A stretch of 64,000 bases of DNA from an uncultured Solirubrobacterales bacterium (GCA_963818815.1 CAWFTL010000004.1:90717-154716); one strand, 5' to 3'; positions 7,672-45,730 are shown, counted from the first letter of the stretch. Notes: generated by a model not told the origin, from the sequence alone. Program-made: numbers and translations.

Positions 7672-7682
7672 CGACGGCGATT

Positions 7683-13195: not shown

Positions 13196-13214
13196 GTGCG
13201 CCGTCCCGGCCGAT

Positions 13215-13251: not shown

Positions 13252-13262
13252 CGCGCGCCCGC

Positions 13263-18775: not shown

Positions 18776-18910
18776 TACTGATGCCGCTCGGACCGCCCCG
18801 GCGGCACGCCTTCCTCCCGGCCGGGGTTGCACAGCCTCTTCGGTTGAAACCTGCAGAAAGCCGAACACGCAGGACACTCCGCTGGGCACGGTCTTGCACT
18901 TGTCGCCTGA

Positions 18911-19038
18911 TGCCTGCGGAGTTAGCTGTCGGGCTCGCGCTTGTCTGGCAAGCGCTTCCCACGGATCACCGTGAGACTCGCCCCAATGTGTTGGGTTCCC
19001 CGCTCCCCGGGGCGGCAGTCCGGGGATTCGGCGGGCAG
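18911..19038 (-). ncRNA. c-di-AMP (ydaO/yuaA) riboswitch
   Basis: The minus strand reads GCCGAATCC...GGAGCGGGGAACC...TTGGGGCGAGTC...GAGCCCGACAGCTAACTCCGCAGGC, matching the conserved ydaO segments. It lies upstream of a cell-wall hydrolase-like gene. Confidence 0.92.
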
Positions 19039-19129
19039 GAACGTACCAGAATGATCGGACGCGCGCATGCGCGCGTCCGCCGGGGCGTGCATGCACGCCC
19101 CGGGGACCGGCCGCATGCGGCCGGTCCTA

Positions 19130-28304: not shown

Positions 28305-28447
28305 GCCTGGTCTCCTGGCTGACGGGCCTACCGGCCGCGCCTTCCCGGCGAGGTTTCCTCACCAGTGGCACGTTGCGGCCGGCGTCCCCGATCACAGTGG
28401 CGGGTCCGCTCCGGAATCTCACCGGCTTCCCATCGCCTGCGACCTTG
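28305..28447 (-). ncRNA. Cobalamin riboswitch
   Basis: The minus strand reads AAGGTC...ATGGGAAGCCGGTGAGATTCCGG...GCCACTGT...GCCACTGG...GGGAAGG...AGCCAGGAGACC (B12 box). TACGAT -10 at 28461-28456. Confidence 0.95.
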
Positions 28448-30661: not shown

Positions 30662-32395
30662 TCAGACCGGCAGCGCGTCCACACTCGCCATGCGGCGCAA
30701 GAGCCCGGGCGCGAACCGTGAGAGGGCTCGCGTCAGCTTGGCCTCGGGCGTTACGACGGCCAGCGGTCGGTCGGCCGCGATCGCCTTCACCACCTCCGCC
30801 GCCACCTGCTCCGGCGTGAAGTTGCGGCGCTGGTAGATCCGGCTGACCTGGTCGCGCATGCGCTCCTGATCGACGCCCCCGGGCCCCACGTACTTCGCCA
30901 CGCGGGTGATGTTGGTGGCCACGATGCCCGGGCAGACTGCGGTCACGCCGATACCGGAGGGCAGCACCTCGGCGCGCAGGCACTCGCTCAGCATCAGAAC
31001 CGCCGCCTTGGAGGCCGCGTAGGCGGGCAGATCCTTGGTGGGGAGAAATGCCGCCGCGGAGGCCGTGTTGACGATGTGGCCGCCCTCGCCGCGCTCGACC
31101 AAGGCGCGCCCGAAGAGCCGGCAGCCGTGCACCACTCCCATCAGGTTGACGTCGAGCACGCGCCGCCAGTCGGAGAAGTCCGTGTCCATGAACGGCCCGG
31201 CGACCGCGATCCCGGCGTTGTTCACGACGATGTCGGGCACGCCGTGCTCGCCGAGCACGGAAGCCGCGAGTCGCTCCATGGCCTCGCCGTCGCTGACGTC
31301 GCAGGTGAAGTGCTGCGCTCCCGGAATCGCGGCGGCGGTCTGCGCGACCGTTTCGTGATCGCGGTCGACGAGCAGCAGGCGGACGCCGTGGTCGGCCAGC
31401 GCCCGGGCAATGGCCCGGCCGATGCCGCTCCCCGCCCCGGTGACGAGCCCCAGGCGGCCCGGTAGCTGTCCCAGGCCGCCGCCTCTCACCCACGGCCGGC
31501 TCGGGCTCGCCGGGCCTCCGCCCTCCACCTCGTCGACGAACTCGGCCACCCACCGCGCGATGAGCTCCGGCCGTGCCCGTGGGGCCCAGTGCGACCCGGC
31601 CACGGTCCGCCGCCGGAGCTTCGGCGCCAGCCGCGTCGCGGACTCGTAGTAGCGCGGCGAGATGAAGTGATCGCCGCTGGGGACGATCAGCTGCACGGGC
31701 ACGTGCGACGGCGCTCCGGCGCCCGGGCGCAGCAGCCTCGGGAGGATGTTGCGGCGATAGAGGTTGGCGCCATGACGCGCGTCGGCGGCGAATGTGCCGG
31801 CGGGATAGCCGGGACCGCTGGGGACCCGCTCGACGTTCTCGAGCACCCACCGCCACCGGCCCCGGGCCAGCAGCAGGGAGCCGGCGAACGTGGGGCCGCC
31901 GGGCGCGGTAAGGACCAGCACGTACCAGGAGCGCCAGAGCGCACCGAGCAGCCGCAGAGCCTCGCCGCGGCGCAGCCCGTTCCGCAGCTCGGCGCCGAGG
32001 GCGTCCAGCGAGGGTCCGGCGATCGTCGTGAACGAGGCCAGCTTGCCCTCGAAGCGCGCGGCAGTGGCGAACTCCCAGCCGGCGACGCCGCCCCAGTCGT
32101 GCCCGACCAGGTGCACGGGCCGCCCGCCGGCGACCTGGGCGATCACCGCCTCGAGGTCGTCGCCGAGCCGCGCGAGCGAATAGGCGCGCGGGCCGTGCGG
32201 AGCGTCGGAGCCGCCCGCGCCGCGGACGTCGTAGGCGGCGAGGTGAAAGCGCGGCTGCAGCTGGTCGAGCACCGGCTCCCACAGCTCCTTGGTGTCGGGA
32301 TAGCCGTGCACGAGGACGATCGTGGGGCGATCCGGGTCGCCCGCTTCGCGCACGGCGAGCCGGACGCCTGAGGCCTCGACGGTGCGCTCGGTCAA
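30662..32395 (-). CDS. Alpha/beta-hydrolase-SDR fusion (EphD-like)
   Basis: VLVHGYPD, GHDWGG, then VTGAGSGIG, NNAGI, YAASKAA. Confidence 0.9.
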   Translation of the reverse strand: MTERTVEASGVRLAVREAGDPDRPTIVLVHGYPDTKELWEPVLDQLQPRFHLAAYDVRGAGGSDAPHGPRAYSLARLGDDLEAVIAQVAGGRPVHLVGHDWGGVAGWEFATAARFEGKLASFTTIAGPSLDALGAELRNGLRRGEALRLLGALWRSWYVLVLTAPGGPTFAGSLLLARGRWRWVLENVERVPSGPGYPAGTFAADARHGANLYRRNILPRLLRPGAGAPSHVPVQLIVPSGDHFISPRYYESATRLAPKLRRRTVAGSHWAPRARPELIARWVAEFVDEVEGGGPASPSRPWVRGGGLGQLPGRLGLVTGAGSGIGRAIARALADHGVRLLLVDRDHETVAQTAAAIPGAQHFTCDVSDGEAMERLAASVLGEHGVPDIVVNNAGIAVAGPFMDTDFSDWRRVLDVNLMGVVHGCRLFGRALVERGEGGHIVNTASAAAFLPTKDLPAYAASKAAVLMLSECLRAEVLPSGIGVTAVCPGIVATNITRVAKYVGPGGVDQERMRDQVSRIYQRRNFTPEQVAAEVVKAIAADRPLAVVTPEAKLTRALSRFAPGLLRRMASVDALPV

Positions 32396-33201
32396 CTGCG
32401 ACCCACGGGGTAGAAGCGCGCGGCGGCGCGCAGGAGCAGCCAGCGCGGTACGTGGCGGCCCAGGACCGCCCCCAGCTCGTTGACCGCTCCCGGGATGACC
32501 ACGCGCTCACCCGACGCGAGCCCCTGCACGCCGGCTTCTGCGACCTTGCCGGGCGAGGCCCAGAGAAAGCCCGGCGTGGCCGAGTCGATCCCCTCCATCC
32601 CGGCCACCGACATGAACTCGGTACGGACCGGCCCCGGGCAGAGCGCGGTGACCGCGACTCCCGCTCCCGCCAGCTCCTGGTGAAGCGCCTCGCTGAAGGA
32701 GAGCACGAGTGACTTCGACGCCGCGTAGGTGGACTGGCCGGGAAGCGGCTGGAAGGCGGCGGTGGAGGCGACGTTGAGAATCGCGCCGCGCCCCCGCTGC
32801 ACCATCTGGGGGGCGTAGCGGCCGCAGAGGTCGACCACCGCCTCGCAGTTCAACCTCAGCATCCGCAGCTCGCGCTCGCGTTCGAGCTCGACGAACGGCG
32901 CCGCGCTGCCGAAGCCGGCGTTGTTGACGAGGACCTCGACCGCCAGGCCGAGATCGGTCAGCTGCGCCGCGAGCTTGTCGCGCTCGGTGGCGTCCCCCAG
33001 GTCACGCCCCAAGACCTCCACCCGCACCCCGTGGCTCGCGCGCAACTCGCCGGCCAGCGTCTCGAGCCGCTCGGTTCGCCTCGCCACGAGCGTGACCCCA
33101 TGCCCCCGGCGCGCGAGCGCTCGGGCGACTTCCGCCCCGATCCCAGACGACGCTCCGGTGATCAGAGCGGTGGCGTCAGGCGACGGTGACGGGAGCGCCA
33201 T
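32392..33201 (-). CDS. Short-chain dehydrogenase/reductase
   Basis: ITGASSGIG, VNNAGFG, YAASKS. ATG 33201 (alternative 33213). Confidence 0.92.
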   Translation of the reverse strand: MALPSPSPDATALITGASSGIGAEVARALARRGHGVTLVARRTERLETLAGELRASHGVRVEVLGRDLGDATERDKLAAQLTDLGLAVEVLVNNAGFGSAAPFVELERERELRMLRLNCEAVVDLCGRYAPQMVQRGRGAILNVASTAAFQPLPGQSTYAASKSLVLSFSEALHQELAGAGVAVTALCPGPVRTEFMSVAGMEGIDSATPGFLWASPGKVAEAGVQGLASGERVVIPGAVNELGAVLGRHVPRWLLLRAAARFYPVGRS

Positions 33202-35119
33202 CGCCGCTGACACTACCCCGTTTGGCGCCCGCGGCGGCGGCGTCTGCGCCCTGCACGGGCGGGGTCTCGATCACCACGCGGCATGGGCGGTGGGCCAGCA
33301 GATAGCTCGCGGTCGGCCCGAGCGCGCGCTCAGAGGGAGGGGCGTGCGCCGTGCCCAGGTAGATGATCTCGGCCTCGGTTCGCTCGGCCTCCTCGACGAT
33401 CGCGGCGCCCGGCGACCGGGTCCGGATCATCCGCGTGTGGACCTTCAGGCCGGCTTTCCGCCCCGTCACCTTCGCGCTTTCCAGCACGCTCAGACCGAGT
33501 TGCTCCTCCCGCTCGAGACCGGCGTCGAGCGATAGCTGGTTGGGGACCCGGAGCACGTAGATCGCCTCGACCAGCGCGTCCGGGCCGACCAGCTTCGCCG
33601 CCGCTCGCAGCGCCGACGCATCGACGTCGGTCCCGAAGATCGGCACGATGGCCGAGCGGTACTCGAGCTCGATGAAGAAGGACGGACGCTCGCGGCGCTC
33701 GAGCCTGTGGCGTGATCGCAGGTCAAGCCCCTGGCGGCGGCGGTAGACGACGTATCCCCCGAGGCCCACGACCATCCAGCCCAAGCCCACCGTCCGCGCC
33801 TCGGCGTGCAGCACCAGCACCGAGATCCAGGCCGCAAAGGTGCCGATCCCACCCAGGACCGCGGTGAGCGGCAGCTGGCGACCGCGCACCCTGACGTTCC
33901 ACGGCATCCGGTAAGGACGCTCCCGGTCGGGATCCTTGAAGCGCAGCGCGATCACCGCGGCGTGGGCGGTGGTGAACGACAGCATGGCGCCGAACGAGTA
34001 GAGGTTGCCCAGGAAGTCGGTCTTGCCCGGGATGAGCAGGATGCCGGCGATGACGGAAAAGGTCACGATCGTGAACCACGGCGTGCGGTACCGCGGGTGA
34101 AGGCGCGAGAACAGCGTGGGCAGCTGCCGGTGCTCGGCCAGGGACCAGGAGAGGCGTGAGATCCCGATCAGGCCCGCGTTGGTCGCGATGAACAGGATCG
34201 TCGCGGCGAGGACGCCGACGTAGTAGCGCAGCACGTGCGCCACGCCCCTGGCCAGCCCCAGGTGGTCGATGATGCCAAGCACCGGGTCGTTCTGGAACCC
34301 GTGCGGTGGCGGCTGGCCGAGCAGCGTGGTGGCCTGGGCGCCGTGGCCGGTCACGGGCAGGGCGGAGAGCGCGACCACCGTCATCCCGGCGTAGACGCCG
34401 AGCACCGCGAACAGGATGAGGTTGACGGCCCGGGGAACGTCCTTGCCGGGATCCCGCGCCTCCTCGGCCATGTTCGAGACGGTTTCGATCCCGGTGTAGG
34501 CCAGCATGGCCAGCGACAGCGCGAAGATCAGGTGGGAATAGCTCGGGACCGTCCCGAGATGGACCTGGTGCACGAGCAGCGACGGGTCGAGGACCAGGAA
34601 CGCGCCCACCACGATGATCACGCACTGCGTGACCAGGTCAGCGACGGCCAGGAAGAAGTTGAGCTTGGCCGACTCCCCGATCCCGCGAATGTTCAGCCAG
34701 GCCAGCAGGGCGATCACCACGAGCCCACCGATGACATCCCCCGGGGGATGTTCCAGTGACGGCCAGAATGCACCGAGGTAGTGCGGCACGAAGAAGGCCG
34801 AGATCGCGATCGTGAGGATGTAGTCGAGGCTGAGGGCCCACCCCGCGAAGAACGAGATCAGCTCATTGAAGGCATGGCGGGCGAAGCTCGATGAACCGCC
34901 CGCCTCCGGGAACATCGCGGCTCCCTCGGCGTATGTCTTGGCGGTAAGCGCGAACAGCCCCCCGGCGAGCATGAACACCACTGGAGTCAGCCCGAGCGCG
35001 TAGGCGGCGACGATGCCTAGCGCGTAATAGATCGAAGAGCCGACGTTGCCGTAGGCGGTGGCGAACAAGCCGCCGACGCCGACACTGCGACGCAATCCGT
35101 GGGTCTCGATCCGGGCCAT
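33176..35119 (-). CDS. APC-family permease fused to C-terminal universal stress (USP) domain, copy 3
   Basis: YGNVGSSIYYALG, PEAGGSSSFARHAF, YTGIETVSNMAEEA, GNLYSFGAMLSF, then IVPIFG...RSPGAAIVEEA...PCRVVI. Confidence 0.88.
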   Translation of the reverse strand: MARIETHGLRRSVGVGGLFATAYGNVGSSIYYALGIVAAYALGLTPVVFMLAGGLFALTAKTYAEGAAMFPEAGGSSSFARHAFNELISFFAGWALSLDYILTIAISAFFVPHYLGAFWPSLEHPPGDVIGGLVVIALLAWLNIRGIGESAKLNFFLAVADLVTQCVIIVVGAFLVLDPSLLVHQVHLGTVPSYSHLIFALSLAMLAYTGIETVSNMAEEARDPGKDVPRAVNLILFAVLGVYAGMTVVALSALPVTGHGAQATTLLGQPPPHGFQNDPVLGIIDHLGLARGVAHVLRYYVGVLAATILFIATNAGLIGISRLSWSLAEHRQLPTLFSRLHPRYRTPWFTIVTFSVIAGILLIPGKTDFLGNLYSFGAMLSFTTAHAAVIALRFKDPDRERPYRMPWNVRVRGRQLPLTAVLGGIGTFAAWISVLVLHAEARTVGLGWMVVGLGGYVVYRRRQGLDLRSRHRLERRERPSFFIELEYRSAIVPIFGTDVDASALRAAAKLVGPDALVEAIYVLRVPNQLSLDAGLEREEQLGLSVLESAKVTGRKAGLKVHTRMIRTRSPGAAIVEEAERTEAEIIYLGTAHAPPSERALGPTASYLLAHRPCRVVIETPPVQGADAAAAGAKRGSVSGDGAPVTVA

Positions 35120-35131
35120 GAGCCCGAATCC

Positions 35132-35164
35132 ACGGTAGATCCGCGGCCGTCAAGATCCCGTAAA
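35132..35164 (-). promoter_or_regulatory. Putative OmpR/PhoB-type (KdpE) tandem box plus -10 element
   Basis: The minus strand has TTTACG-N5-TTGACG (35164-35148), then 10 nt, then TACCGT (35137-35132), 12 nt before the ATG at 35119. Confidence 0.5.
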
Positions 35165-35192
35165 GGATCGCCCCGCCGGCGTAGAGATTTCG

Positions 35193-35882
35193 TTAATCGC
35201 CCGGGGCGCGAAGCCGGTAGCCGACGCCCGGCTCGGTGATCAGGTAGCGAGGTCGCGAAGGGTCGGGTTCGAGCTTGGCGCGGATGTGGGCCACGTGGAC
35301 CCGGAGGTAGTGCGTCTCCTCGCCGTACTGCGGCCCCCACACCTCCTGAAGCAGGCGCCGGTGGGTGACGAGGCGGCCAACGTGCGAGGCCAGGACCCGG
35401 ATGAGCTCGAACTCGATCGGGGTCAGGCGGACCTCCTCGCCGTCGCGCAGGACGCGCCGGTCCTGCAGGTCGACCACCACCTCCCCCAGCTCCACCAGCG
35501 GCGAGCCGGTGGCCTGCGCGGAGCGGCGCAGCACAGCGCGCAGCCGCGCCAGCAGCTCATCGGTGCCAAACGGCTTGGTCACGTAGTCGTCGGCGCCGGC
35601 GTCGAGCGCCTTTACCTTCTCGCGCTCGTCGCCGACGGCGGATAGCACGAGGATCGGCAACCCGCTCCAGCGCCGGACCTCCTGGCAGACATCGACGCCG
35701 CGGCCGTCGGGCAGGACGAGGTCGAGAACCATCGCGTCGGGCGGGCGCAGCGCGAGGGAGCTCAGCGCCTCTTCCTTGCTCGCGGCGGCCTCGACGGCGT
35801 ACCCGGCGCCGCGCAGGATGATCTTCAGGCCCCGGACGATCTGGGGCTCGTCGTCGACGACCAGGACCCGGGGCGAGCTCAA
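35193..35882 (-). CDS. kdpE: KdpE-like response regulator
   Basis: VLVVDDEPQI, LDLVLPDG.G, KVKALDAGADDYVTKPFG, HYLRVHV..IR.KLEPDPSRPRYLITEPGVGYR. TTG overlaps the kinase stop. Confidence 0.9.
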   Translation of the reverse strand: MSSPRVLVVDDEPQIVRGLKIILRGAGYAVEAAASKEEALSSLALRPPDAMVLDLVLPDGRGVDVCQEVRRWSGLPILVLSAVGDEREKVKALDAGADDYVTKPFGTDELLARLRAVLRRSAQATGSPLVELGEVVVDLQDRRVLRDGEEVRLTPIEFELIRVLASHVGRLVTHRRLLQEVWGPQYGEETHYLRVHVAHIRAKLEPDPSRPRYLITEPGVGYRLRAPGD

Positions 35883-37306
35883 CCGACGGCCTCGGGCTGC
35901 GGGACGACCGGGAAGCTGACCGCGAACGCCGTTCCCCGGTTGGCCCCGGACTGCAGGGCGATCTGGCCGCCGTTGGCTTCGACGAAGCCGCGGCAGATGG
36001 CGAGCCCGAGCCCAGAGCCCGAACCGGTGCGGCCGCGGAAGAAGGGCTCGAACACACGCGCGCGCTGCTGGGAGGGAATGCCCCGTCCCTGGTCGATCAC
36101 CCGTACGGTCACGCGTCCCGAGCCCACGCCCGCGGTGATGCGCACGGGCGCGCCCGGAGGCGAGAACTTGACCGCATTCTCGATCAGGTTCGAGAACACC
36201 CGCTCCAGCTGGGACTCGTCGGCGCGGACCAGGGGCAGGTCGCGAGGCAGATCGAACTCGAGCGGGTGCTCGGTCCGGATCCCGGCGCCGGCTGAGGCGA
36301 CGACGTCGCGCAGGTCGCACCAGTCCGACTGCGGAGCCAGCGCTCCGGCCTGGATCTTCGAGAGGTCGAGGAGGTCGTCGACCAGCTTGGCCAGTCGCGC
36401 CCCTTCGTCCTCGATCACCGAAACGAGCTCGGAGCGCTCCTGCTCGCTGATGCCCTCAGTGCGCAGCGCCGAGCCGGCGGTCGTGATCGCCGTGAGCGGA
36501 GAGCGCAGATCGTGCGAGATCGCGTGCAGAATTGCCGTCCTGGCCACCTCGGCCCGGCGTGCCGCCTCGGTCTCGGCCTCGCGCTCGGCCACGCGCTCCC
36601 GTTCGAGCGCGACGTCGAGCAGCCGTCCGAGCGGCTCGCACAGCCGCTCGAGCTCCTGCGCCGACCAGCTGGTGTCACGGGCGACGTACAGCCACGCGTT
36701 GCGGGCGCGGGTGCGTAGGGCGAGCGTGTGCTCCTCCGCGTGCGGCGAGGGCACGGGCTCGAGGATCACGCGGGCGCGGCTGGCTCCGGTGGCCCTGGAG
36801 ACCTGGCTGCCGATGCTCTCGAGCTGGGCGGCCAGGCTCTGTCCGGCCAGGACGGCTGAGGCAGCCTGGGCCAGCAGCGAGGCCTCGCGCTCGCGGGCCG
36901 CAGCCACGTGCGCGCGGACCTCAGCCTCGGCCGCGCGCTGGCGGCCGGTGGCGGCCAGGCGGCCCACTACGACGGCAGCGATGAGCAGCACCCCGAGCTC
37001 GACCACATCTCTCGAGTGGGCGATCGCGAGCTGGTGCCGTGGGGCGATGAACAGGTAGTTGAGGACGAGCATGCTCAGTACGGCGGAGATCAGGGCGGCG
37101 ATCTCGCCCCGGCGGATCGCGATCGCCAGTACCGCGAGCAGGTAGAGCACGCCGAGTCCCTCGGCGGGCGCGGTTGACTGGAGCGCGGCGATCACGGCCG
37201 TGGCCAGACCGATCGCGACGACGATCTCGGCCGCGGCGAGGGCGAGCTTCCGCCTGGCCGGCAGCTTCGGCCGGATCCTCATGGATGACGCCTTGACGGC
37301 GCTCAT
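35879..37306 (-). CDS. KdpD-like sensor histidine kinase lacking the N-terminal KdpD and USP domains
   Basis: Starts directly with the 4-TM DUF4118-like block (NYLFIAPR), then coiled coil, SHDLRSPL H-box, NLIENAVKFS, DQGRGI, GSGLGL. Start 37306 or 37282. Confidence 0.85.
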   Translation of the reverse strand: MSAVKASSMRIRPKLPARRKLALAAAEIVVAIGLATAVIAALQSTAPAEGLGVLYLLAVLAIAIRRGEIAALISAVLSMLVLNYLFIAPRHQLAIAHSRDVVELGVLLIAAVVVGRLAATGRQRAAEAEVRAHVAAAREREASLLAQAASAVLAGQSLAAQLESIGSQVSRATGASRARVILEPVPSPHAEEHTLALRTRARNAWLYVARDTSWSAQELERLCEPLGRLLDVALERERVAEREAETEAARRAEVARTAILHAISHDLRSPLTAITTAGSALRTEGISEQERSELVSVIEDEGARLAKLVDDLLDLSKIQAGALAPQSDWCDLRDVVASAGAGIRTEHPLEFDLPRDLPLVRADESQLERVFSNLIENAVKFSPPGAPVRITAGVGSGRVTVRVIDQGRGIPSQQRARVFEPFFRGRTGSGSGLGLAICRGFVEANGGQIALQSGANRGTAFAVSFPVVPQPEAVG

Positions 37307-37316
37307 GCGGTGAAGG

Positions 37317-39206
37317 CTACGCGGCGATCGGCGTACGCCGGCCGCCCTTGGCCGGCACCGACTCGATGATCACCCGGCAGGGGCGCTCGCGCAGGACGGT
37401 CTCGAGCGTCTTCCCGAACCCGCCGCCGGGCGCCGCCATCGGCATGACGATCGCGCCGGCGCGCATCGCGCGAGCGTTGTCGACGATCACGCGGCCGGTC
37501 TGACCGGGTCTGACCTTCTCCCAGTGGCCGGACACGCGGCGCCCGGCCTGGACCTTGGCCTCCTCGATGATCGAGGCCGCCGCGGCCTCGTGCTCGGGTA
37601 TGGCGGCGCCGATCGGGCTGCTGGCCGGCACGGTGATCGTGACCAGCACGTGGATCCCGCGCCGGCGCCGGGCCGCCATCCGCGTCGCCGTGGCCATCAC
37701 CTCGGGCACGTAGCCGCGCTCGTCGAAGGCGACCAGTACCGACTCGTACTCGGCCTCGGTGTCGACCGCGGGCTGGGGAATCGCGACCTTGGCCGTGGTC
37801 GTGAGATCGAGGCCCTGCTGGCGACGGTAGGCGATGAACACGCAGACCCCGATGGCCAGCCAGCCGACACCGGCGGCGGCCACGGTTGCGTGCAGCGCGG
37901 TCACGGTGACGAAGGCCAGGAACGTCCCCAGACCGCCGAGGACTGCGAACAGCGGCAGCTCGCGGCCGGCCAGGCGCAGATTGCCCGGACCCCGGTACGG
38001 CCGCTTGCGGTCGGGATCGCGCAGCCGCAGCCGGATGACGGACAGGTGCGCGATCGTGAACGACAGCATCGCGCCGAAGGCGTACATGTTGCCCAGGAAG
38101 TCGGCCTGGCCCGGGATCAGCGTGATGCAGGCGATGGCGCCGAAGGCGATGATCCCGATCCAGGGCGTGCGAAAGCGCGGGTGCAACCGGCGCAGAGCAT
38201 CGGGGACCTGGCGGTGCAGCCCCATCGAGTAGACCAGGCGCGAGACGCCGATGATCCCGGCGTTGGTCGCGATGAACAGGATCGTCGCTGCCAGCAGCCC
38301 CACGTAGATCTCGCCGGCGTGCTGGAGAGGGCCAAGGTTCAGGTGCTTGACGATGCCCAGCACCGGATCGCCGGCGAAGCCGCCCTGCTGCTCGCTCAGC
38401 CCGAGCAGCGTCTGGCAGTGCCCATTGACGCAGCGGACGGGAAGCGCCGACAACGCCACCGCCGGGAGCGCGGCGTAGATGGCGAACACCGCGATCACCA
38501 CGCGGTTGATCGCCTTGGGGATGGTTCGCTCCTGGTCCTTGGCCTCCTCGGCCATGTTCGAGATCGTCTCGATCCCGGTGTAGGCGATCATGCCCACGGG
38601 GATCGCGATCAGGAAGTCCCGCCAGTGGGGAACGGTTCCGAGGTGGACGTTGGCGATCAGCGTGTGCCCGTCGAACACGAGGACCAGCCCCAGCGCGACG
38701 AGCAGCACCTGGGTGGAGAAGTCGACAATGGCCAGCGCCACGTTGACCCTCGTCGCCTCGGTGATGCCGACGACGTTGATCGCGCCCAGGAGCGCGATCA
38801 CGCCGATGCCGAAGAAGATGTCGCCCGGCGAGGTCTTCAGGAAGGGGAAGAACAGCCCGCCGAGGTAGTGCGGGACGAAGAACGCCGAGATGGCGATCGT
38901 GATCACGTAGTTGAGCATCTGGCCCCAGGCGGCGAAGAACGACCAGAACTCGTTGAAGGCGTGGCGGGCGAAGCTCGAGGAGCCTCCCGCCTCGGGATAC
39001 ATCGCCGTGGCCTCGGCGTAGGTGGCGGCGGTCAGGTAGAAGATCACGCCACTGACCACAAATACGATCGGGGTCAGGCCGAGAGCCAGCGAGGCGACGA
39101 GACCGAGCGCGTAGTAGATCGAGGAACCGACGTTCCCGTACGCGCTCGAGGCGAGCGCGTTGACACCGAGGACGCGTTGCAGGCCCGGCAGCCGCCGCTC
39201 GGCCAT
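37317..39206 (-). CDS. APC-family permease-USP fusion, copy 2
   Basis: ATG 39206. YGNVGSSIYYALG, YPEAGGSSSFARHAF, YTGIETISNMAEEA, C-terminal USP with RERPCRVII. Confidence 0.88.
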   Translation of the reverse strand: MAERRLPGLQRVLGVNALASSAYGNVGSSIYYALGLVASLALGLTPIVFVVSGVIFYLTAATYAEATAMYPEAGGSSSFARHAFNEFWSFFAAWGQMLNYVITIAISAFFVPHYLGGLFFPFLKTSPGDIFFGIGVIALLGAINVVGITEATRVNVALAIVDFSTQVLLVALGLVLVFDGHTLIANVHLGTVPHWRDFLIAIPVGMIAYTGIETISNMAEEAKDQERTIPKAINRVVIAVFAIYAALPAVALSALPVRCVNGHCQTLLGLSEQQGGFAGDPVLGIVKHLNLGPLQHAGEIYVGLLAATILFIATNAGIIGVSRLVYSMGLHRQVPDALRRLHPRFRTPWIGIIAFGAIACITLIPGQADFLGNMYAFGAMLSFTIAHLSVIRLRLRDPDRKRPYRGPGNLRLAGRELPLFAVLGGLGTFLAFVTVTALHATVAAAGVGWLAIGVCVFIAYRRQQGLDLTTTAKVAIPQPAVDTEAEYESVLVAFDERGYVPEVMATATRMAARRRRGIHVLVTITVPASSPIGAAIPEHEAAAASIIEEAKVQAGRRVSGHWEKVRPGQTGRVIVDNARAMRAGAIVMPMAAPGGGFGKTLETVLRERPCRVIIESVPAKGGRRTPIAA

Positions 39207-41140
39207 CAGGCCTCCGGCTCGCTGCCGTCGCGATCGGCCGGTGCACCGCGGTGCGCGGGCGGCGCGGTCAGGATGACCCGGCACGGGGCCTTGTTGATCA
39301 CGTACTTGGTCATGTCGCCCACGTAATTGTCAAGCGGGCTGACGCCGCCCAGCAAACCGCCTCCGCGCACGCGCGACGGCTCCTCGGCGGCCAGCACGAT
39401 CGCCTCTACCCCACGGCGCTTGGCCTCACCCACGATCGCCTGCCCGGCCCGCCGCGCCCTGACCATCGCGGTGGCCACCTCGACGCCCTCGTACTCCTCC
39501 CCCACCGCCTTGGCCCGCGCCAGGGCCTCACGCGCCCGCTTGATCTGGCCGTCTGGCAGGGGCGCGTCGAGGGGCAGCGACAGCGGCATCTCGAACACCC
39601 AGATCGCCTCGATGACGGCGCCCTCCTCGACCAGGTCGTCGCGGCTCTCACCCGCCAGCCGGCCCGCCGTCTGCACGATGTCGTCGTCGAGCGCGTTACC
39701 TGAGATGGGGACGAGGATCGAGCCGAACTCGGACTCGAGCGGCTCGTGGCGGAGCGCCCGCTCGGGGATCGTGACCCGGCGCAGCAGCGGCTTCTGCTGG
39801 GTCTTCCGGTACGTGACGTACAGGACGAGGCCGCCGGCCAGCCAGCCCACGCCGACGTAGCGCGCACCACTGTGGAAGATCATCACCGAGATCAGTCCCG
39901 CGGCGGCCAGGAGCCCGCCTGCCACGGCCGGGAGCGGCACCGGCACGCCGCGCACGGGAACCGAGCACGGCACGGCGAATGGCCGCTCTCTGCCCGGCTC
40001 GCGGAAGCGCAGCGCGATCACAGAGACGTGGGCGATCGTGAACGCCAGCAGCGCCCCGAAGGCATAGATCCCGATCAGCAGCTCGAGGTCCCGCGGCACC
40101 ACGAGCGCCCCAGCCGCGACCGCGGCGGCGCCGATGATCACGAACGGTGTCCCCCATCGGCCGCTGAGACGCCCGACGGCGCTGGGGATCTGGCGGTTGG
40201 TGGCCAGCGAGTACCCCACGCGCGAGACGCCGAGCATCGACGAGCCTGCGGCGGCCGCCAGACCCGCCGCACCGCCGACCGCGACCGCGTAGCGCAGGAC
40301 GTCGGAGATCCACTTCGGCCGGAAAGCCTCGACTACGCCGAGGACAGGCGCGTGCAGATGGGTCTGGCCGAGCTGCGTGACGCCATTGGTCACGGGCAGG
40401 GCCGAGATCCCCACGAAGGCGATGCCCACGTAGACGAGCACGATCACGGCCGAGCCCGGCACCACGAGCCGTCTCACCTGCGCGGCCGAGGCCGTCACCT
40501 CGCCTGCGATGCTCGCCGCCGCCTCCAGTCCGGTGAAGGCGATGACCGCCACCGGGAAGGCGAAGGCCAGATCCGACCACGTTGGCGCGCTGCCGAGGTG
40601 GATCGACTCGGTCAGGTGGTGTGGGTGCAGAGCCAGGGCGAGGCCGAGGACGATCACCGCCGCCTGAAGGGCGAGGTCGGCCACGGCGATGATGATCCGC
40701 CGCCGCAGCCGCCGGACGTTCACTCCGGTCAGGTTGTCGACGGCCACGAAGGCGATCACCACCAGGGCCAGCACGACCTGCACGCTGCCCCGTCCGAGCG
40801 GGGCGTAGAAGCCGCCGAGGTAGGCCGGCACCGTGAGCGCGGCCACGGCCAGGAGAATCGTGTAGTCGAGCACGATCATCCAGCCCGCGACGAAGCTGAC
40901 CAGCTCGTTGAAGGCATAGCGCGCGAACACGGCGGAGCCGCCGCGCTCGCGGTGCAGCGCGGCGCCCTCGGCGTAGCTCATGGCGGTGAGCTGGAAGAAG
41001 ATGCCGCCGGCGAGGAAGACGAGCGGCGTGAGCCCGTCGGCGCGGCGCGCGACGACCCCCAGCGCGAAGTAGACCGAGCTGATCGAGGTCGTGTACACGA
41101 CCGCGAACAGCGCGCGGTAGGAAAAGGGCCGCTCGTTCAC
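39206..41140 (-). CDS. APC-family permease-USP fusion, copy 1 (divergent TM1)
   Basis: VYTTSISSVYFALG, ERGGSAVFARYAF, FTGLEAAAS, C-terminal USP (ILVPISG...AIVGEAKRR...APCRVIL). Confidence 0.85.
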   Translation of the reverse strand: MNERPFSYRALFAVVYTTSISSVYFALGVVARRADGLTPLVFLAGGIFFQLTAMSYAEGAALHRERGGSAVFARYAFNELVSFVAGWMIVLDYTILLAVAALTVPAYLGGFYAPLGRGSVQVVLALVVIAFVAVDNLTGVNVRRLRRRIIIAVADLALQAAVIVLGLALALHPHHLTESIHLGSAPTWSDLAFAFPVAVIAFTGLEAAASIAGEVTASAAQVRRLVVPGSAVIVLVYVGIAFVGISALPVTNGVTQLGQTHLHAPVLGVVEAFRPKWISDVLRYAVAVGGAAGLAAAAGSSMLGVSRVGYSLATNRQIPSAVGRLSGRWGTPFVIIGAAAVAAGALVVPRDLELLIGIYAFGALLAFTIAHVSVIALRFREPGRERPFAVPCSVPVRGVPVPLPAVAGGLLAAAGLISVMIFHSGARYVGVGWLAGGLVLYVTYRKTQQKPLLRRVTIPERALRHEPLESEFGSILVPISGNALDDDIVQTAGRLAGESRDDLVEEGAVIEAIWVFEMPLSLPLDAPLPDGQIKRAREALARAKAVGEEYEGVEVATAMVRARRAGQAIVGEAKRRGVEAIVLAAEEPSRVRGGGLLGGVSPLDNYVGDMTKYVINKAPCRVILTAPPAHRGAPADRDGSEPEA

Positions 41141-41158
41141 GTGGTCGTGTCGGCCGCC

Positions 41159-41350
41159 TCAGGTACCCCTGGTCAGCAGGTACAGGCGAGCGGCTCCGGC
41201 GGCTATGAAGAGCAGGCCCAGTACCAGTCCCGTTGCGGCGATCCCTCCCCCCGCGGTCAGCGTGCGTACGACCAGAGCGATCCCGATGACGATCATCAAG
41301 GTCGACATGACCCGCGTAGAGCTCCGTCGGAACTGGCGTCGCTGCTGCAT
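41159..41350 (-). CDS. Small two-TM membrane protein
   Basis: 63 aa, basic N-terminus and two hydrophobic helices, co-oriented within the cluster. Confidence 0.65.
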   Translation of the reverse strand: MQQRRQFRRSSTRVMSTLMIVIGIALVVRTLTAGGGIAATGLVLGLLFIAAGAARLYLLTRGT

Positions 41351-41380
41351 CGCGCCCCGTAGCTTAGGACGCGGCGAGGC

Positions 41381-43216
41381 TCATTCGCGCACGCGAAACG
41401 CCAGTGTCGCGATGACGATGTTGGTCCGCGTCTTCAGCACCGACTCGAGCAGACGGCCCCGCTGGTTGTGAAGGATCTCGTGGCGTCGCTTGCTCGGGAC
41501 GATCACCGGGATCAGGACCACGATCGTGGCGTCCTCGCGCTCCACCGACTTCACGTAGCGCAGAACGCTGCGCACGAGCGAGCGGTGGGGATCGAGCACG
41601 ACCTCGATGGGGATCCCCGGGTCCCAGTCGTCCCAGGAGCGCTTTATCTCCTCGGACTCCTCCTCGTCACCGGCCACGGCCAGCGCGATGGCGGTGTCTC
41701 CGAGCGACAGAGCCGCCGCGACGGCCTTTTCGGTGAGCAGGCTGACAGTGGAACTGGGCACGATGACCACGCTCTCGCGCCGGCGAGGGTGCGGCGGCGT
41801 CTTGCCGAGCTTCAGCTCGCGTGCCACCTCGGCGTAGTAGTCCTGGGTCCGCGCGAAGCCGAGGATCAGCAGCGGCACGGCCACGGTGACGACCCAGGCG
41901 CCCTCGAGGAACTTCGAGGTCAGGAAGACGACGACGGCCACGGCCGTCATCACCGCGCCGGCCCCGTTCAGTCCCGCCCGGAGCTGCCATCTGGCCGGGC
42001 GCTCCTGCCTCCAGTGGCGGACCAGCCCCACCTGGCTGATCGTGAAGCTGAGGAATACGCCGATGGCATACAGAGGAATCAGCTTTGTCGTCTGCGCGCC
42101 GACGGCCACCAGCAGCAGGGCCGCCCCCAGGGCCAGAGCGACGATCCCGTGACGGTACACCGGCCTCTCGGCCCGCAGGTAGAACATGTGGGGCAGGCGG
42201 TGATCGCGGGCCAGCAGGCTCATCAGCACGGGCAGACCGCCGAAGCTCGTGTTGGCGGCCAGGCCCAGGACCAGCGTGACGGCGAGGTTGGACACGTAGA
42301 ACGCCCAGCCCGTCCCGAACGCGCCCGCCGTCAGCTGCGCGAGGACGGTCACGCCGCCCCGCGGCACCACGTGGTGGGCCCGGACCTGAACCGCGAGACC
42401 GATCAGCATCACGGCCAGGAGCACGCCGAGCACGGCTTCCGTGGCCTGGGCGCGCTTGACCCGGGGCGCGCGGAAGGCGGGCACGCCGTTGGCGATCGCC
42501 TCCACCCCCGTGACCGCCGAGCAGCCGTTGGCAAAGGCCTTGAGCAGCAGCACGATCCCGACCGCGGTGCTCGGTGCGACCGGCAGCGGTGTGCCGACAT
42601 GGGCCACGGGGTGCGAGCGCAGCGGCCCCACGACGATGACCGCGATGATGCTCACCACGAACACGGCGGCCGGGAGCATCAGCAGCTTGGCCGACTCCGA
42701 GATCCCGAACATGTTCACCGCCGTGAGCAGCACCAGGCCGGCCAGGGAGACGAGCAGCAGGTGGTGCGCGAGGGACGGAAACACGCTGCCCAGGCTGGCT
42801 GCGCCCGCGGCGAGGCTGACGGCGACCGTGAGCACGTAATCCACGACCAGCGCCGCCGCGGCCAGCAGCGCCGGCCACTTGCCGAGGTTGCGCTTGGCCA
42901 CCGCGTACGCGCCTCCACCCTCGGGATGGGCCGAGATCACCTGCGCGTAGGAGACGACGAGCAGCGCCAGCATGCCCGTGATGACCAGGGTCAGCGGCAG
43001 CGTGAAGCGCAGCGCGGCCGTGCCCGCGGTGACGAGGACGACGACCATCGCCTCCGGGCCGTAGGCGACGCTCGAGAGCGCGTCGAGGCTGAGCGCGGCC
43101 AGCCCGCCGGGGACCCCAAGCTGGTGACCGCCCTCGGAATGCTTTCCGGCGCGCGAGCCTCGTCTCTGTCGGCGGCCGGTTGGGGAGCCAGCTTCCGTCT
43201 CCGGGTGCTCGCTCAC
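41381..43216 (-). CDS. KimA/YdaO-like APC potassium importer
   Basis: LSLDALSSVAYGPE, HPEGGGAY, DYVLTVAVS, AVTGVEAIANGVP, ANTSFGGLP.L, LIPLYAIGVF, HEILHNQ. Confidence 0.88.
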   Translation of the reverse strand: MSEHPETEAGSPTGRRQRRGSRAGKHSEGGHQLGVPGGLAALSLDALSSVAYGPEAMVVVLVTAGTAALRFTLPLTLVITGMLALLVVSYAQVISAHPEGGGAYAVAKRNLGKWPALLAAAALVVDYVLTVAVSLAAGAASLGSVFPSLAHHLLLVSLAGLVLLTAVNMFGISESAKLLMLPAAVFVVSIIAVIVVGPLRSHPVAHVGTPLPVAPSTAVGIVLLLKAFANGCSAVTGVEAIANGVPAFRAPRVKRAQATEAVLGVLLAVMLIGLAVQVRAHHVVPRGGVTVLAQLTAGAFGTGWAFYVSNLAVTLVLGLAANTSFGGLPVLMSLLARDHRLPHMFYLRAERPVYRHGIVALALGAALLLVAVGAQTTKLIPLYAIGVFLSFTISQVGLVRHWRQERPARWQLRAGLNGAGAVMTAVAVVVFLTSKFLEGAWVVTVAVPLLILGFARTQDYYAEVARELKLGKTPPHPRRRESVVIVPSSTVSLLTEKAVAAALSLGDTAIALAVAGDEEESEEIKRSWDDWDPGIPIEVVLDPHRSLVRSVLRYVKSVEREDATIVVLIPVIVPSKRRHEILHNQRGRLLESVLKTRTNIVIATLAFRVRE

Positions 43217-43267: not shown

Positions 43268-44245
43268 TCAGGCCAGGCCGTTGGCGGCCAGGAACGAGTG
43301 CGCGACGCTCGCCGGTGACTGCTGGTCGAGCTGCACAGCCGCGTTCATCTTGATGATCGCCGGGAGGGTGAGCAGAGAGCTCACCTTGTTGATGGTCTGA
43401 GTGAAGGCGGGCCCCTCCGCCCGCACGAGGCTCTGCTTGACGACCGGAGCGACATTCTGGAAGCCGAACAGCTTCTTCGTGTCGGCCAGTACCGTGTACT
43501 TCCCAGCCTGCAGCTGCGGGTCGGTGGTGAAGATGGTCGCAATCTTCACCTGCCCCGAGTCGAGTGCCTTGTAGTTGAGGCCCTCGGCCAGCGGCACGAA
43601 CTGCAGCTTGTGCAGCCCATAGACCTTCTCCAGACCGACGAGTCCGTCGTAGCGAGTGCGATTCTCCGCCGGCGCGCCGTAGCTGACCTTCCCGAGCTTT
43701 TGCAGGTCGGCGATGGTCTTCAGGCTGTGGGCCTTGGCGTAGGCCTTGACCGCGGCCAGTCCGTCGGCGTCATAGAAGGGTGTCTGGTCCAACAGGATGA
43801 AACCGTGCTGCTTGACGAAGGCCTGGGCCTCGTTATAGGTCTGCTTGGCGCTGCTGGGTGGCTTGGTGTTGCCGGCGATAGCCGTGAGCAGCGTTCCGGT
43901 GTATTCCGGGTACATCTGGATCTGACCACCCTGAAGTGCCTTCCAGATGATCTCCGAGCTGCCGATGTTGCCCTTGAGCGTCACCGAGTAGCCCTTGGCG
44001 GCGAGAGCCTGCTGGTACAGCGCACCGAGCAGGTACTCCTCGTCGAAGTTCTTGTCTCCGAGCACGATCGGCGGCTTGCCCTTGCCGGGGCCGCTCGCGG
44101 CCGGGGCTGCGGACGAGCTGCCCGTTGCGGTACTGCTGGTCGAGCTGGTCTTGGGACTCGACGACGAGCTGCCGCAGGCAGCCAGCGCAAGCGTCATGAC
44201 GACCGCCAGTGCGCCGGAGCTCCATCCTTTCCATCTCATGTGCAT
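43268..44245 (-). CDS. Osmoprotectant (glycine betaine/choline) ABC substrate-binding lipoprotein, OpuCC/OsmF-like
   Basis: GAGGAGG RBS, lipobox LAAC, GDKNFDEEYLLG, MYPEYTGT, FTTDPQL, FGFQNVAPVV. Confidence 0.9.
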   Translation of the reverse strand: MHMRWKGWSSGALAVVMTLALAACGSSSSSPKTSSTSSTATGSSSAAPAASGPGKGKPPIVLGDKNFDEEYLLGALYQQALAAKGYSVTLKGNIGSSEIIWKALQGGQIQMYPEYTGTLLTAIAGNTKPPSSAKQTYNEAQAFVKQHGFILLDQTPFYDADGLAAVKAYAKAHSLKTIADLQKLGKVSYGAPAENRTRYDGLVGLEKVYGLHKLQFVPLAEGLNYKALDSGQVKIATIFTTDPQLQAGKYTVLADTKKLFGFQNVAPVVKQSLVRAEGPAFTQTINKVSSLLTLPAIIKMNAAVQLDQQSPASVAHSFLAANGLA

Positions 44246-44279
44246 CTGTTTCCTCCTCGTTGGTTTTGTTGGGTGAAAG

Positions 44280-45002
44280 TCAACCTTGGCTGACAGCAGG
44301 CACGAGCGCCGAGGTGGGATCCTCGGCACTGGCGAGCTTGAGTCCACGCGGCGTCAGCACCCGCTGCACTCCGGCTAGAGCGAACTCGATCCCCAGGGCC
44401 AGCGCGGCGATGCAGTAGGCCGCGCCGATCACCCCGGGGAGGCGGTAGCTCGCCTCGTTGTTGATGATGTCCCCGAGGGTGCCGCTGTATCCGGTCAGGG
44501 CCGCGATCGTCGTGGTCGAGATGACGAACAGCGAGGCGGTGCGAATCCCGGCGAAGATGAGCGGGATTCCCATCGGCAGCTCGACCTGGCGGAGGATCTG
44601 CCAGCCGGTCAGGCCCATGCCCCGTGCGGCATCGACGATCTCGCGATCGACGCCGTCGATGGCCACGTACGCATTGGTGATCACCGGCGGAATCGCGAGC
44701 ACGATCAGAGCCAGCTCGACGTTCTCCAGTCCGACGCCGAGAAACGCCACCCCGATGGCCAGCACGGCCAGGCTGGGGAGCGCCCGCCAGACGTTGCCGA
44801 TGTTGATGGCCAAAAACGAGAAGCGATGTATGTGGCCGAGCCACACGCCGAGCGGGATCGCCACGATCAGCGCGATGGCCATGCCGATCGCGGCCACCTT
44901 CAGCGTCTCCAGAGCGAGATGGACCAGCGTGGGCTGGCCCGGGATACCGGCGATCTGCCCGTTGTTGCCGATGAAGTGGAAGGCCTGGATGAAGTTGTGC
45001 AT
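44280..45002 (-). CDS. Osmoprotectant ABC permease
   Basis: RALPSLA, DAARGMG (EAA motif), VELPMGIPLIFAGIR. Confidence 0.92.
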   Translation of the reverse strand: MHNFIQAFHFIGNNGQIAGIPGQPTLVHLALETLKVAAIGMAIALIVAIPLGVWLGHIHRFSFLAINIGNVWRALPSLAVLAIGVAFLGVGLENVELALIVLAIPPVITNAYVAIDGVDREIVDAARGMGLTGWQILRQVELPMGIPLIFAGIRTASLFVISTTTIAALTGYSGTLGDIINNEASYRLPGVIGAAYCIAALALGIEFALAGVQRVLTPRGLKLASAEDPTSALVPAVSQG

Positions 45003-45730
45003 TACGCCCGCGTCCAGGGTGTGAGTACTCGCTGAAGGCCCACGAGCAGCGCATCGGCGACGAGCGCAAGCAGCACGGCCAGGGCGCCGGCAGAGATCAG
45101 CTCGGTCTTGAAGACGTTCTTGGAGATCGCGTCGAGGATCGGCGCTCCGAGACCTTCGTTGTCGATCAACGAGGCCACCGTGGCCAGCGAGATCACGGTC
45201 ACGGTCGCGATCCGCAGCCCGGCAATGATCGCCGGCAGCGCGAGCGGCAGCTCCACCCGCAGCAGCGATTCTGTGGCCCCCATGCCCATCCCGGCCGCCG
45301 CGTCACGGACCTCTTCCGGTACCTCACGCAGCCCGGTGAGAGTGTTGCGGAACAAGATCAGCAGCGTGTATGACACGAGCGCCACCTCGGCCGTGGTACG
45401 GCTCAGACCCAGCCCGGGAATGCCTTCGAGGAGCTCGAACAGGGCCAACGACGGGATCGTGTAGAGGATCGAGGTGACGATGATCACCGGCCGCTCGGCC
45501 CAGCGTCGTCGGTAGGCGATCAGCGCCAGTGCGGTCGAGATGGCGAAGCCGATCACCACGGCGATCACGGTCAGCACGACGTGCTGGCGCACCGCGGGCC
45601 AGAGCAGGGTGCTCCAGTTCTGGCTGAACCAATGCGTGCAGAACAACCGGTTGGCGCGCTCGCAGGCAAACGAGGACGGACTGCCCCCGAAGCTCGGGAT
45701 CACCGGGCCGGAGCTGGCGAGCAGGATCAC
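45002..45730 (-). CDS. Osmoprotectant ABC permease
   Basis: LYTIPSLAL, DAAAGMGMG, VELPLALPAIIAGLR. Confidence 0.92.
   Translation of the reverse strand: MILLASSGPVIPSFGGSPSSFACERANRLFCTHWFSQNWSTLLWPAVRQHVVLTVIAVVIGFAISTALALIAYRRRWAERPVIIVTSILYTIPSLALFELLEGIPGLGLSRTTAEVALVSYTLLILFRNTLTGLREVPEEVRDAAAGMGMGATESLLRVELPLALPAIIAGLRIATVTVISLATVASLIDNEGLGAPILDAISKNVFKTELISAGALAVLLALVADALLVGLQRVLTPWTRA

Follow-up and report, generated by a model that had tools for sequence, protein, structure and literature searches.

Gene content of the locus

The 64,000-nucleotide stretch analysed here (the window; GCA_963818815.1 CAWFTL010000004.1:90717-154716) comes from an uncultured Solirubrobacterales bacterium and carries a run of seven genes for a KimA-like permease, a small protein with two transmembrane (TM) segments, three APC-type permeases with a C-terminal Usp domain (APC-USP 1, APC-USP 2 and APC-USP 3), and a sensor kinase and response regulator of KdpD/KdpE type (HK-A and RR-A, together the A pair). 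We concentrate on the A pair, on a four-hexamer operator that accompanies it and on the secondary carriers that stand behind this operator (Table 1). The source genome, assembled as 3.15 Mb in five contigs and 95%-complete, is that of a soil actinobacterium of the class Thermoleophilia, and the window has a G+C content of 70%. From position 46767 down to 33176 every gene lies on the minus strand in tight packing. An initial annotation, made from the sequence alone, had listed the seven co-oriented genes directly downstream of an osmoprotectant ABC operon; positions and order are confirmed, the families by Pfam, NCBIfam and phmmer, and the upstream operon is of the OpuAC type, which also adjoins the cluster in several relatives (loci L079, L082 and L016). 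Within the run, the stop codon of APC-USP 1 is overlapped by 1 nt by the ATG of APC-USP 2, and the stop codon of HK-A is overlapped by the TTG start of RR-A, which suggests translational coupling of kinase and regulator.

Table 1. Features of the locus in the direction of transcription, with window coordinates
Feature	Position	Strand	Evidence or remark
ABC importer, osmoprotectant-type	43268-46767	-	Pfam ABC_tran, BPD_transp_1 (twice), OpuAC
ABC importer ATPase	45727-46767	-	
ABC importer permeases	45002-45730 and 44280-45002	-	BPD_transp_1
OpuAC substrate-binding protein	43268-~44242	-	Pfam OpuAC E 1.7e-45
KimA orthologue, 611 aa	41381-43216	-	Full-length match to PDB 6S3K
-10-like TAAGCT	41361-41366	-	Conserved before start codon of small gene
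Small 63-aa 2-TM protein	41159-41350	-	Hairpin, GGG loop; no family match
APC-USP 1	39206-41140	-	Pfam AA_permease_2 1.3e-24, Usp 2e-07
APC-USP 2	37317-39206	-	Pfam AA_permease_2 3e-42, Usp 7e-05
HK-A, kinase, 475 aa	35879-37306	-	Pfam DUF4118 1.9e-21, HisKA 1.9e-15, HATPase_c 5.7e-27
RR-A, OmpR-family regulator	35193-35882	-	Pfam Response_reg 6.8e-28, Trans_reg_C 2.5e-23
Four-hexamer operator	35148-35196	-	Starts inside RR-A stop codon
-10-like TACCGT	35132-35137	-	Between operator and APC-USP 3 ATG
APC-USP 3	33176-35119	-	Pfam AA_permease_2 1.2e-43, Usp 5.6e-12

HK-A and RR-A in relation to the kdp-linked pair

HK-A is a short KdpD-type kinase consisting of a 4-TM DUF4118 domain, a linker, HisKA and HATPase_c, and a Pfam scan of its 475 amino acids (aa) found neither a KdpD-N domain (PF02702) nor a Usp domain. 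RR-A combines a receiver with an OmpR-type winged helix. The best NCBIfam models were KdpD for the kinase (NF007793; 204.7 bits, below the cut-off of 1123, with PnpS next at 145.8 bits) and KdpE for the regulator (NF007820; 251.7 bits, below the cut-off of 325, with MtrA next at 207.7 bits). No other DUF4118 kinase occurs in the genome, so that the A pair alone is present.

For order-wide searches we used 301 genomes of Solirubrobacterales. Orthologues of HK-A (53-73% identity) were found in 26 of them, and a second group of kinases, 38-43% identical to HK-A, lies directly beside kdpA; we refer to this kinase as HK-B and to its regulator as RR-B. The kdp loci of the order run HK-B, RR-B, two small open reading frames (ORFs), kdpA, kdpC, kdpB and a separate KdpD-N gene. 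HK-B is a 468-aa DUF4118-HisKA-HATPase protein, while the KdpD-N gene encodes 372 aa that match PF02702 (E 3e-93) and NF038185, the "KdpD-like non-kinase potassium sensor" (351 bits). With a short kinase and a separate KdpD-N gene at these loci, KdpD is therefore split throughout the order. An example is locus L061 (G146:C2:582001-600000), positions 6111-14105, and L017, L021, L064 and L073 are built likewise; the small ORFs there encode 26 and 29 aa, the second of them KdpF-like, and the pump genes stand in the order A-C-B instead of A-B-C.

RR-A is about 55% identical to RR-B, and on the KdpD and KdpE models HK-A and RR-A score above HK-B (158 bits) and RR-B (212.8 bits). As judged from these comparisons, the A pair is a paralogue of the kdp-linked HK-B/RR-B pair and not a more diverged copy of it. 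A decaying, truncated KdpD is ruled out, given that the short form is normal in the order and HK-A outscores the kdp-linked kinase; of the truncated KdpD/KdpE pair described in the initial annotation, the likeness to KdpDE and the shortness stand, whereas the idea of a truncated orphan gives way to that of a paralogue in an order whose KdpD is split. The two regulators also differ in the recognition helix, which reads ETHYLRVHVAHIRAKLE in 36 RR-A sequences versus DTQVLRxHIANLRRKIE in 25 RR-B sequences. KdpA has a scattered distribution, with 130 of the 301 genomes of the order and 15 of 24 sampled genomes from this genus encoding it, and HK-A occurs independently of it, with KdpA in 11 of the 26 HK-A genomes; in sister genomes the A pair coexists with a kdpFACB-linked HK-B/RR-B pair.

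Conserved neighbours of the A pair

We collected 35 distinct HK-A/RR-A loci, mostly from metagenome-assembled genomes, some of which contain frameshifts. In 22 of them RR-A is followed on the same strand by a copy-3-type APC-USP, of which only a separate Usp gene (Pfam Usp 4.7e-15) is left in three, and in nine it is followed by Kup (two co-directional, six convergent within 800 nt and one convergent at 828 nt). The other loci have convergent kdpACB-KdpD-N (one), RR-B (one) or none of these types (two). K+ carriers are thus regular companions of the A pair, with APC-USP 3 and Kup occupying the same slot. Both kinds of output meet in two loci ordered HK-A, RR-A, Usp, Kup (L075 and L076), the first of which has an APC-USP after Kup.

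The block formed by the small gene, APC-USP 1, APC-USP 2, HK-A, RR-A and APC-USP 3 was found in more than 15 species-level genomes. Conserved synteny across the 35 loci, together with the shared operator, rules out chance clustering. Orthologues of HK-A adjoin kdp in four genomes (G286, G167, G236 and G119): in G236 and G119 the whole block is inverted between the B-type kdpDE genes and kdpA, and in G286 the A pair adjoins the kdp operon as the sole KdpDE-like system.

A four-hexamer operator before APC-USP 3 and kup

The operator between RR-A and APC-USP 3 spans 49 bp and has the consensus TTAGCG-N5-TCTACG-N15-TTAGCG-N5-TTGACG, that is, direct hexamers at offsets 0, 11, 32 and 43; the copy in the window reads TTAACG-N5-TCTACG-N15-TTTACG-N5-TTGACG. 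Its geometry is constant in more than 20 genomes, where it precedes APC-USP 3, Kup or Usp plus Kup. A position weight matrix built from 20 sites and run over both strands of the whole genome at a threshold of 14 bits returned exactly two sites, one before APC-USP 3 (62 bits) and one immediately before the single kup gene of the genome (53.5 bits). On contig C5 this second site occupies 647484-647532, and kup itself 645312-647177. Across the order, a degenerate IUPAC pattern gave 21 matches in 18 of the 301 genomes, while the reversed pattern, used as a control, gave 0; matches occurred in 17 of the 26 genomes with HK-A versus 1 of the 275 without (Fisher p = 2e-20). The genes behind the pattern are APC-USP 3, Kup or Usp plus Kup, except at the kdp promoters of G286 and G054 and at a second site in G258.

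This second G258 site (L105, G258:C4:1034017-1034065, at 1501-1549 on the minus strand) is of the same class and divergent intergenic, and no known gene follows it; it is flanked by a 489-aa KimA-like permease, which keeps the D36/Y43 motif (DPVSSVAYA) and has no C-terminal domain, and by an unknown 128-aa ORF. At L016 a 57-bit site (12345-12393, minus strand) lies between convergent RR-A and kup genes and points at the 3' end of RR-A; it has no gene downstream and may be a rearrangement remnant or an antisense promoter.

Between operator and start codon, a -10-like TACCGT is placed 10 nt past the last hexamer and about 12 nt before APC-USP 3, and TACCGT, TAGCGT or TACCTT recurs at equal spacing in orthologous loci. 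The kdp promoters of the order carry TTCACA-N5-TGTATG-N15-TGCATG-N5-TTGACG (the B-class operator), identical in geometry and position to the A operator and different in its hexamers; the kdp promoter of G286 has an A-like first hexamer. On the simplest reading of these sites, the whole cassette of kinase, regulator and operator would have been duplicated and its cargo exchanged.

KimA, the small gene, APC-USP 1, APC-USP 2 and HK-A are not preceded by the operator; before HK-A and the small gene no site reached 20 bits, and autoregulation through the operator was accordingly rejected. Instead, about 15 orthologous loci share a TAAGCT or TAATCT placed 10-13 nt ahead of the small gene (10 nt in the window, counted to the start codon), irrespective of the upstream gene. 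It is a putative promoter of the small gene, APC-USP 1, APC-USP 2, HK-A and RR-A, from which a near-leaderless transcript would start. A scan for sigma-70 promoters and terminators was uninformative at 70% G+C. Where the cluster lies beside kdp (L004, L008, L011, L012, L060 and L063), a B-class operator stands back to back with the TAAGCT promoter at a distance of about 12 nt, so that RR-B, when bound there, could influence the APC-USP/HK-A operon as well.

These results modify the proposal that KdpDE controls the APC-USP carriers of the cluster. It fits APC-USP 3, which has the operator; APC-USP 1 and APC-USP 2 have none and lie behind a separate predicted promoter. The targets are secondary carriers as had been proposed, and one of them, kup, lies outside the window with its own copy of the operator.

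K+ systems of the genome

Family searches of the whole assembly found no KdpA and no KdpB, and nothing above cut-off for the KdpD N-terminal domain; KdpA, KdpB, KdpC and KdpD-N from relatives, used as tblastn queries, gave no match in the genome. The lack of kdpFABC noted for the window thus extends to the entire assembly. Neither TrkH nor KtrB was found in the genome, which leaves KimA and one Kup as its only recognizable K+ importers.

The window KimA matches Bacillus subtilis KimA (PDB 6S3K) over its full length (phmmer E 7e-120, residues 29-609 versus 20-605). In this alignment D36, Y43, D117, T121, S125, T230, E233 and Y377 are kept, as is H579-N580-Q581 of the pocket for cyclic di-AMP (c-di-AMP), and R337 is replaced by His; the roles of the K+-site and proton-coupling residues and of this pocket are described in PMC6994465 and PMC10284832. 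With the K+-site and proton-coupling residues all identical, the protein listed as KimA-like in the initial annotation is, on residue evidence, a true orthologue, i.e. a KUP-family K+/H+ symporter with a C-terminal c-di-AMP-binding domain. Its gene adjoins the APC-USP block in few of the genomes that have the block, and in the window the conserved TAAGCT separates it from the small 2-TM gene.

One DAC cyclase in the genome and a ydaO-type riboswitch in the window indicate that c-di-AMP signalling is present. The riboswitch search of the window found none before kimA or the cluster; the sole c-di-AMP riboswitch (ydaO/yuaA, 63 bits) lies at 18895-19043 on the minus strand, and riboswitch control of kimA or the cluster was rejected. 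A cobalamin riboswitch (84 bits) is found at 28308-28432 on the minus strand. At the APC-USP 3 end of the cluster, the longest reading frame of an SDR gene (32392-33213, minus strand) overlaps the last 38 nt of APC-USP 3, so that translation probably begins further inside this frame; the SDR gene is a conserved flank (L010 and L004) outside the module.

The APC-USP proteins and their small partner

The APC-USP proteins carry a 12-TM fold of the LeuT type (Foldseek) and match the AA_permease_2 profile with E-values of 1e-24 to 1e-43. APC-USP 2 has the motifs AYGNVGSSIY in TM1, LNYVITIAIS in TM3 and AYTGIETISN in TM6, invariant in 42 orthologues, and APC-USP 3 has AYGNVGSSIY, LDYILTIAIS and AYTGIETVSN at the same places. 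APC-USP 1, likewise a 12-TM APC permease with a C-terminal Usp domain, has lost the TM1 glycine motif (VVYTTSISSVYF), a state conserved in 30 orthologues; its TM1 reads VVYTTSVSSVYF instead of AYGNVGSSIY, and the Gaiellales counterpart keeps AYGEIGSS. A possible role of APC-USP 1 is as a partner of APC-USP 2, either non-transporting or in a heteromer.

The small 63-aa protein had no Pfam or NCBIfam match; it is 54-72% identical in relatives and always encoded directly upstream of an APC-USP 1-type gene. Outside Thermoleophilia, in Gaiellales and one archaeon, homologous 2-TM ORFs of 51-57 aa with a GGG loop stand before APC-USP genes. In the former, L137 (5819-9950) has an H+-PPase, an APC-USP, a 51-aa ORF and a further APC-USP, with two TrkA-domain genes 2.5 kb off; in the latter, L141 (7826-10331) has a 57-aa ORF followed by a 776-aa APC-USP.

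Among 401 genomes sampled from the phylum, proteins at least 35% identical to the APC-USP family were found in 24 Thermoleophilia and one other genome, and the core unit across the class is APC-USP 2, the small gene and APC-USP 1 without a two-component system. A homologue search with APC-USP 3 returned only relatives at least 83% identical; a search of 1.8 billion representative proteins reached further, to 810 clusters at E <= 1e-30. Databases label the family "APA basic amino acid/polyamine antiporter", and the best curated NCBIfam subfamily, TIGR00909, reached 142 bits against a cut-off of 556.8, and the proteins score far below the cut-off of every subfamily.

Several features resemble K+ carriers. 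The TM1 sequence YGNVGSS has the spacing of Kup YGDIGTS and a one-residue deletion relative to SLC7 (HMMER alignment with CAT4), and wider APC-USP relatives have YGDVGSS or YGEIGSS there. The TM6 TGIE resembles TGSE of Kup and TGVE of KimA, where SLC7 has (I/V)-G-(F/W)-(D/E), and DYILTIAIS in TM3 of APC-USP 3 resembles DYVLTVAVS of KimA. The equivalent of KimA Y377, a Tyr in TM10, is kept; the counterpart of D117 is Asn in APC-USP 2, and T121 has no equivalent in APC-USP 1. In an AlphaFold2 model of APC-USP 3 (predicted local distance difference test score, pLDDT, 80), the TM domain fits best on the SLC7 structures BasC, LAT and CAT (Foldseek TM-score ~0.8), while full-length Foldseek alignments that include the C-terminal alpha/beta domain were obtained only with KimA and the SLC12 K+-coupled carriers. 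Two candidate homologies of this C-terminal domain were rejected: the hhalign match of the Usp domain to the KimA C-domain was not significant (E 0.059 over 24 columns), and BLASTP gave no similarity to the Usp-like tail of KdpD-N.

Proposed regulon and alternative explanations

We consider it reasonably probable (about 60%) that the locus is a K+/osmotic homeostasis island organized around HK-A/RR-A, a paralogue of split KdpD/KdpE with a regulon of secondary carriers. The regulatory architecture, a KdpDE paralogue with its own operator over a small regulon of such carriers, is well supported. We infer that HK-A, which keeps the membrane and C-terminal parts of KdpD, would sense K+ availability or ionic stress and phosphorylate RR-A, and that phosphorylated RR-A would bind the 49-bp operator in place of a -35 region and activate transcription. 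Pho boxes sit at the -35 position, and the like placement of the operator favours activation over repression. In this genome, from which the Kdp pump and HK-B/RR-B are absent, the predicted regulon would comprise APC-USP 3 and the only kup gene, while the small gene, APC-USP 1, APC-USP 2, HK-A and RR-A would be transcribed from a separate, apparently unregulated promoter, with KimA and the OpuAC importer alongside. The APC-USP proteins would be secondary carriers with the same physiological role as Kup, most likely for K+ or another monovalent cation, and their Usp domain would have a regulatory function in the cytoplasm, like the C-domains of KimA and SLC12 carriers. The initial annotation had likewise proposed a K+/osmotic module: the tie between a KdpDE-like pair and secondary carriers stands, whereas K+ transport by APC-USP is a prediction that has to contend with an essential Asp replaced by Asn or Thr.

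That replacement heads the points that weigh against this interpretation. At the position of KimA D36 and Kup D23, APC-USP 2 and APC-USP 3 have Asn and APC-USP 1 has Thr, invariant in orthologues, and D36N abolishes K+ uptake by KimA (PMC6994465). The closest sequences belong to SLC7 (xCT 9e-23, CAT4 2e-20, GkApcT 2e-15, versus KimA 2e-13), an SLC7-like AEExxxPxxDxP motif follows TM6, and the APC-USP proteins have no Pfam K_trans (PF02705) match. We regard the Asn for Asp and the closeness to SLC7 as real objections to a K+ substrate. The Usp domains contain neither the ATP-binding motif G-x2-G-x9-G-(S/T) defined in PMC8214093, of which only the last Gly (G601) is invariant in the alignment, nor the KdpD-type c-di-AMP motif (A/G/C)-x-S-x-S-x2-N. 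On the regulatory side, KimA, APC-USP 1 and APC-USP 2 have no preceding operator, and in four loci APC-USP 3 directly follows RR-A without one. In these loci (L005, L006, L009 and L079) APC-USP 3 starts 10-42 nt after RR-A, as if the output gene had become part of the two-component operon. Finally, a kdp operon could in principle lie in the missing part of the 95%-complete assembly.

The objections concerning the carriers equally suit a circuit wired in the same way, in which APC-USP would import organic solutes with or instead of K+, such as compatible solutes, glutamate serving as counter-ion, or basic amino acids or polyamines that stand in for the cation. When K+ is extremely scarce, B. 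subtilis swaps part of it for basic amino acids. In the present genome KimA and Kup are already available, an osmoprotectant ABC importer adjoins the cluster, and the database label, the SLC7/CAT/LAT- and ApcT-like sequence and TM fold, the EExxxPxxDxP motif and the Asn or Thr for the K+-binding Asp all point the same way. We nevertheless find organic solutes rather unlikely, since the invariant TM1 and TM6 motifs of APC-USP 2 and 3 are KUP/KimA-like and unlike SLC7, wider relatives have YGD or YGE as in KUP, the solved structures with an alpha/beta C-domain after the APC fold are KimA and SLC12 and not SLC7, and APC-USP 3 shares its operator-controlled slot with Kup across genomes. On the strength of the shared slot, the KUP/KimA-type motifs and the KimA/SLC12-type architecture, we give K+ or another cation a slight edge over an organic solute as the APC-USP substrate.

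Other doubts concern the A pair itself. Not every DUF4118 kinase senses K+, and HK-A/RR-A might respond to pH, Na+, NH4+ or envelope stress, with an indirect link to K+ carriers; HK-A scores far under the KdpD equivalog cut-off (204.7 versus 1123 bits) with half of KdpD missing, and kdp of Mycobacterium smegmatis responds to Na+ and NH4+ as well (PMC5401905). Such a signal seems improbable to us in view of the clear margin by which KdpD and KdpE are the best models, of neighbours that are almost all K+ carriers (Kup, KimA, Kdp), and of G286, where the only KdpDE-like system is an A pair beside kdpACB-KdpD-N and the kdp promoter has the A-like first hexamer. The absence of KdpD-N and Usp from HK-A, and of a KdpD-N gene from the genome, also leaves room for the APC-USP proteins or their Usp domains to serve mainly as co-sensors that supply a Usp input in trans, comparable to LysP-CadC or UspC-KdpD. 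In this genus APC-USP 1 and 2 are predicted to be co-transcribed with HK-A, APC-USP 1 has lost the TM1 glycines expected in an active carrier, L083, L075 and L076 retain, behind the operator, Usp-only genes that derive from APC-USP 3, and the layout parallels that of kdp operons ending in KdpD-N. Yet APC-USP 2, the small gene and APC-USP 1 occur without HK-A in many genomes of the class, the Usp domains do not specifically resemble the Usp-like part of KdpD-N, and G002 has HK-A, RR-A, the operator and Kup with zero APC-USP. Given this last genome, an obligatory or general co-sensor role is unlikely, and we hold co-sensing as the main function to be very improbable.

Implications

KdpDE is usually regarded as a switch that serves the Kdp pump alone. 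In the present case kinase, regulator and operator have been duplicated and moved onto secondary carriers and are kept in genomes that lost the pump, and the defined 49-bp operator with its two-gene regulon offers a directly testable system. For the large permease family labelled as basic amino acid/polyamine antiporters, the motifs and the regulation suggest a part in K+ homeostasis. A broader proposal, which we put forward tentatively and regard as possible though doubtful, is that APC-USP with its 2-TM partner forms a third, unrecognized family of K+ (monovalent cation) carriers of the APC superfamily, placed between SLC7 and KimA/KUP and found in Thermoleophilia, Gaiellales and some archaea, which in Solirubrobacterales has come under a duplicated KdpDE with its own operator as a Kdp-independent K+ regulon. 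If APC-USP carries K+, the list of bacterial K+ uptake systems becomes longer and a gap in the evolution of KimA/KUP from amino-acid carriers is closed.

Comparison with known systems

The nearest regulatory counterpart is KdpD/KdpE with kdpFABC in Escherichia coli and M. smegmatis, with which the A pair shares the DUF4118-HisKA-HATPase_c kinase, the OmpR-type regulator and the gene overlap. It differs in that HK-A has no KdpD-N or Usp domain, both proteins score below the equivalog cut-offs, the genome has no pump, the targets are the secondary carriers Kup and APC-USP, and the pair is a paralogue of one that stands beside kdp. In the split KdpD represented by NF038185, the kdpACB operon of the order ends in a separate KdpD-N gene, while the window genome has neither this N-terminal gene nor the pump; HK-A, if functional, would work without any KdpD-N partner. 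In M. smegmatis the KdpE site defined by footprinting, 5'-CCGTAAAGAAACCATCAAGGCC, corresponds on the other strand to TTGATG-N5-TTTACG (PMC5401905). It matches the window operator in its TT-rich type of hexamer, in the 11-bp spacing and in its place beside the -10, with two hexamers there versus four here.

A haloarchaeal parallel is reportedly found in papers of the Greie lab, where cat3 of Halobacterium salinarum is said to encode an amino-acid-permease-Usp fusion beside kdpFABCQ; we know of no regulatory role of cat3, and the archaeal APC-USP relative at L141 has no kdp neighbour.

For the carriers, KimA of B. subtilis (YdaO; PDB 6S3K and 8B70) is preceded by a c-di-AMP riboswitch, whereas the window kimA is not. 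APC-USP shares with KimA the TM3 and TM6 motifs, the Y377 equivalent and an APC fold followed by a C-terminal alpha/beta domain, and differs in having Asn or Thr for D36 and a C-domain that is recognizably Usp, which that of KimA is not. The SLC7/APC carriers (GkApcT, BasC, LAT1, xCT, CAT4 and ApcT) are the best match in sequence and TM fold and have EExxxPxxDxP in common with APC-USP, yet their TM1 has G-S/A-G where APC-USP has G-S-S with a one-residue deletion, their TM6 has (I/V)-G-(F/W)-(D/E) where APC-USP has T-G-I-E, and only APC-USP has the Usp domain and the 2-TM partner. From Kup/KUP (PF02705) the APC-USP proteins differ by missing the ALYADMGHF motif and the K_trans_C domain and by an Asn in place of the essential Asp. 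The YGDIGTS(PL)Y of Kup is nonetheless mirrored by YGNVGSS(I)Y of APC-USP, TGxE is present in both, and Kup shares the operator with APC-USP 3, which it replaces after RR-A in other genomes.

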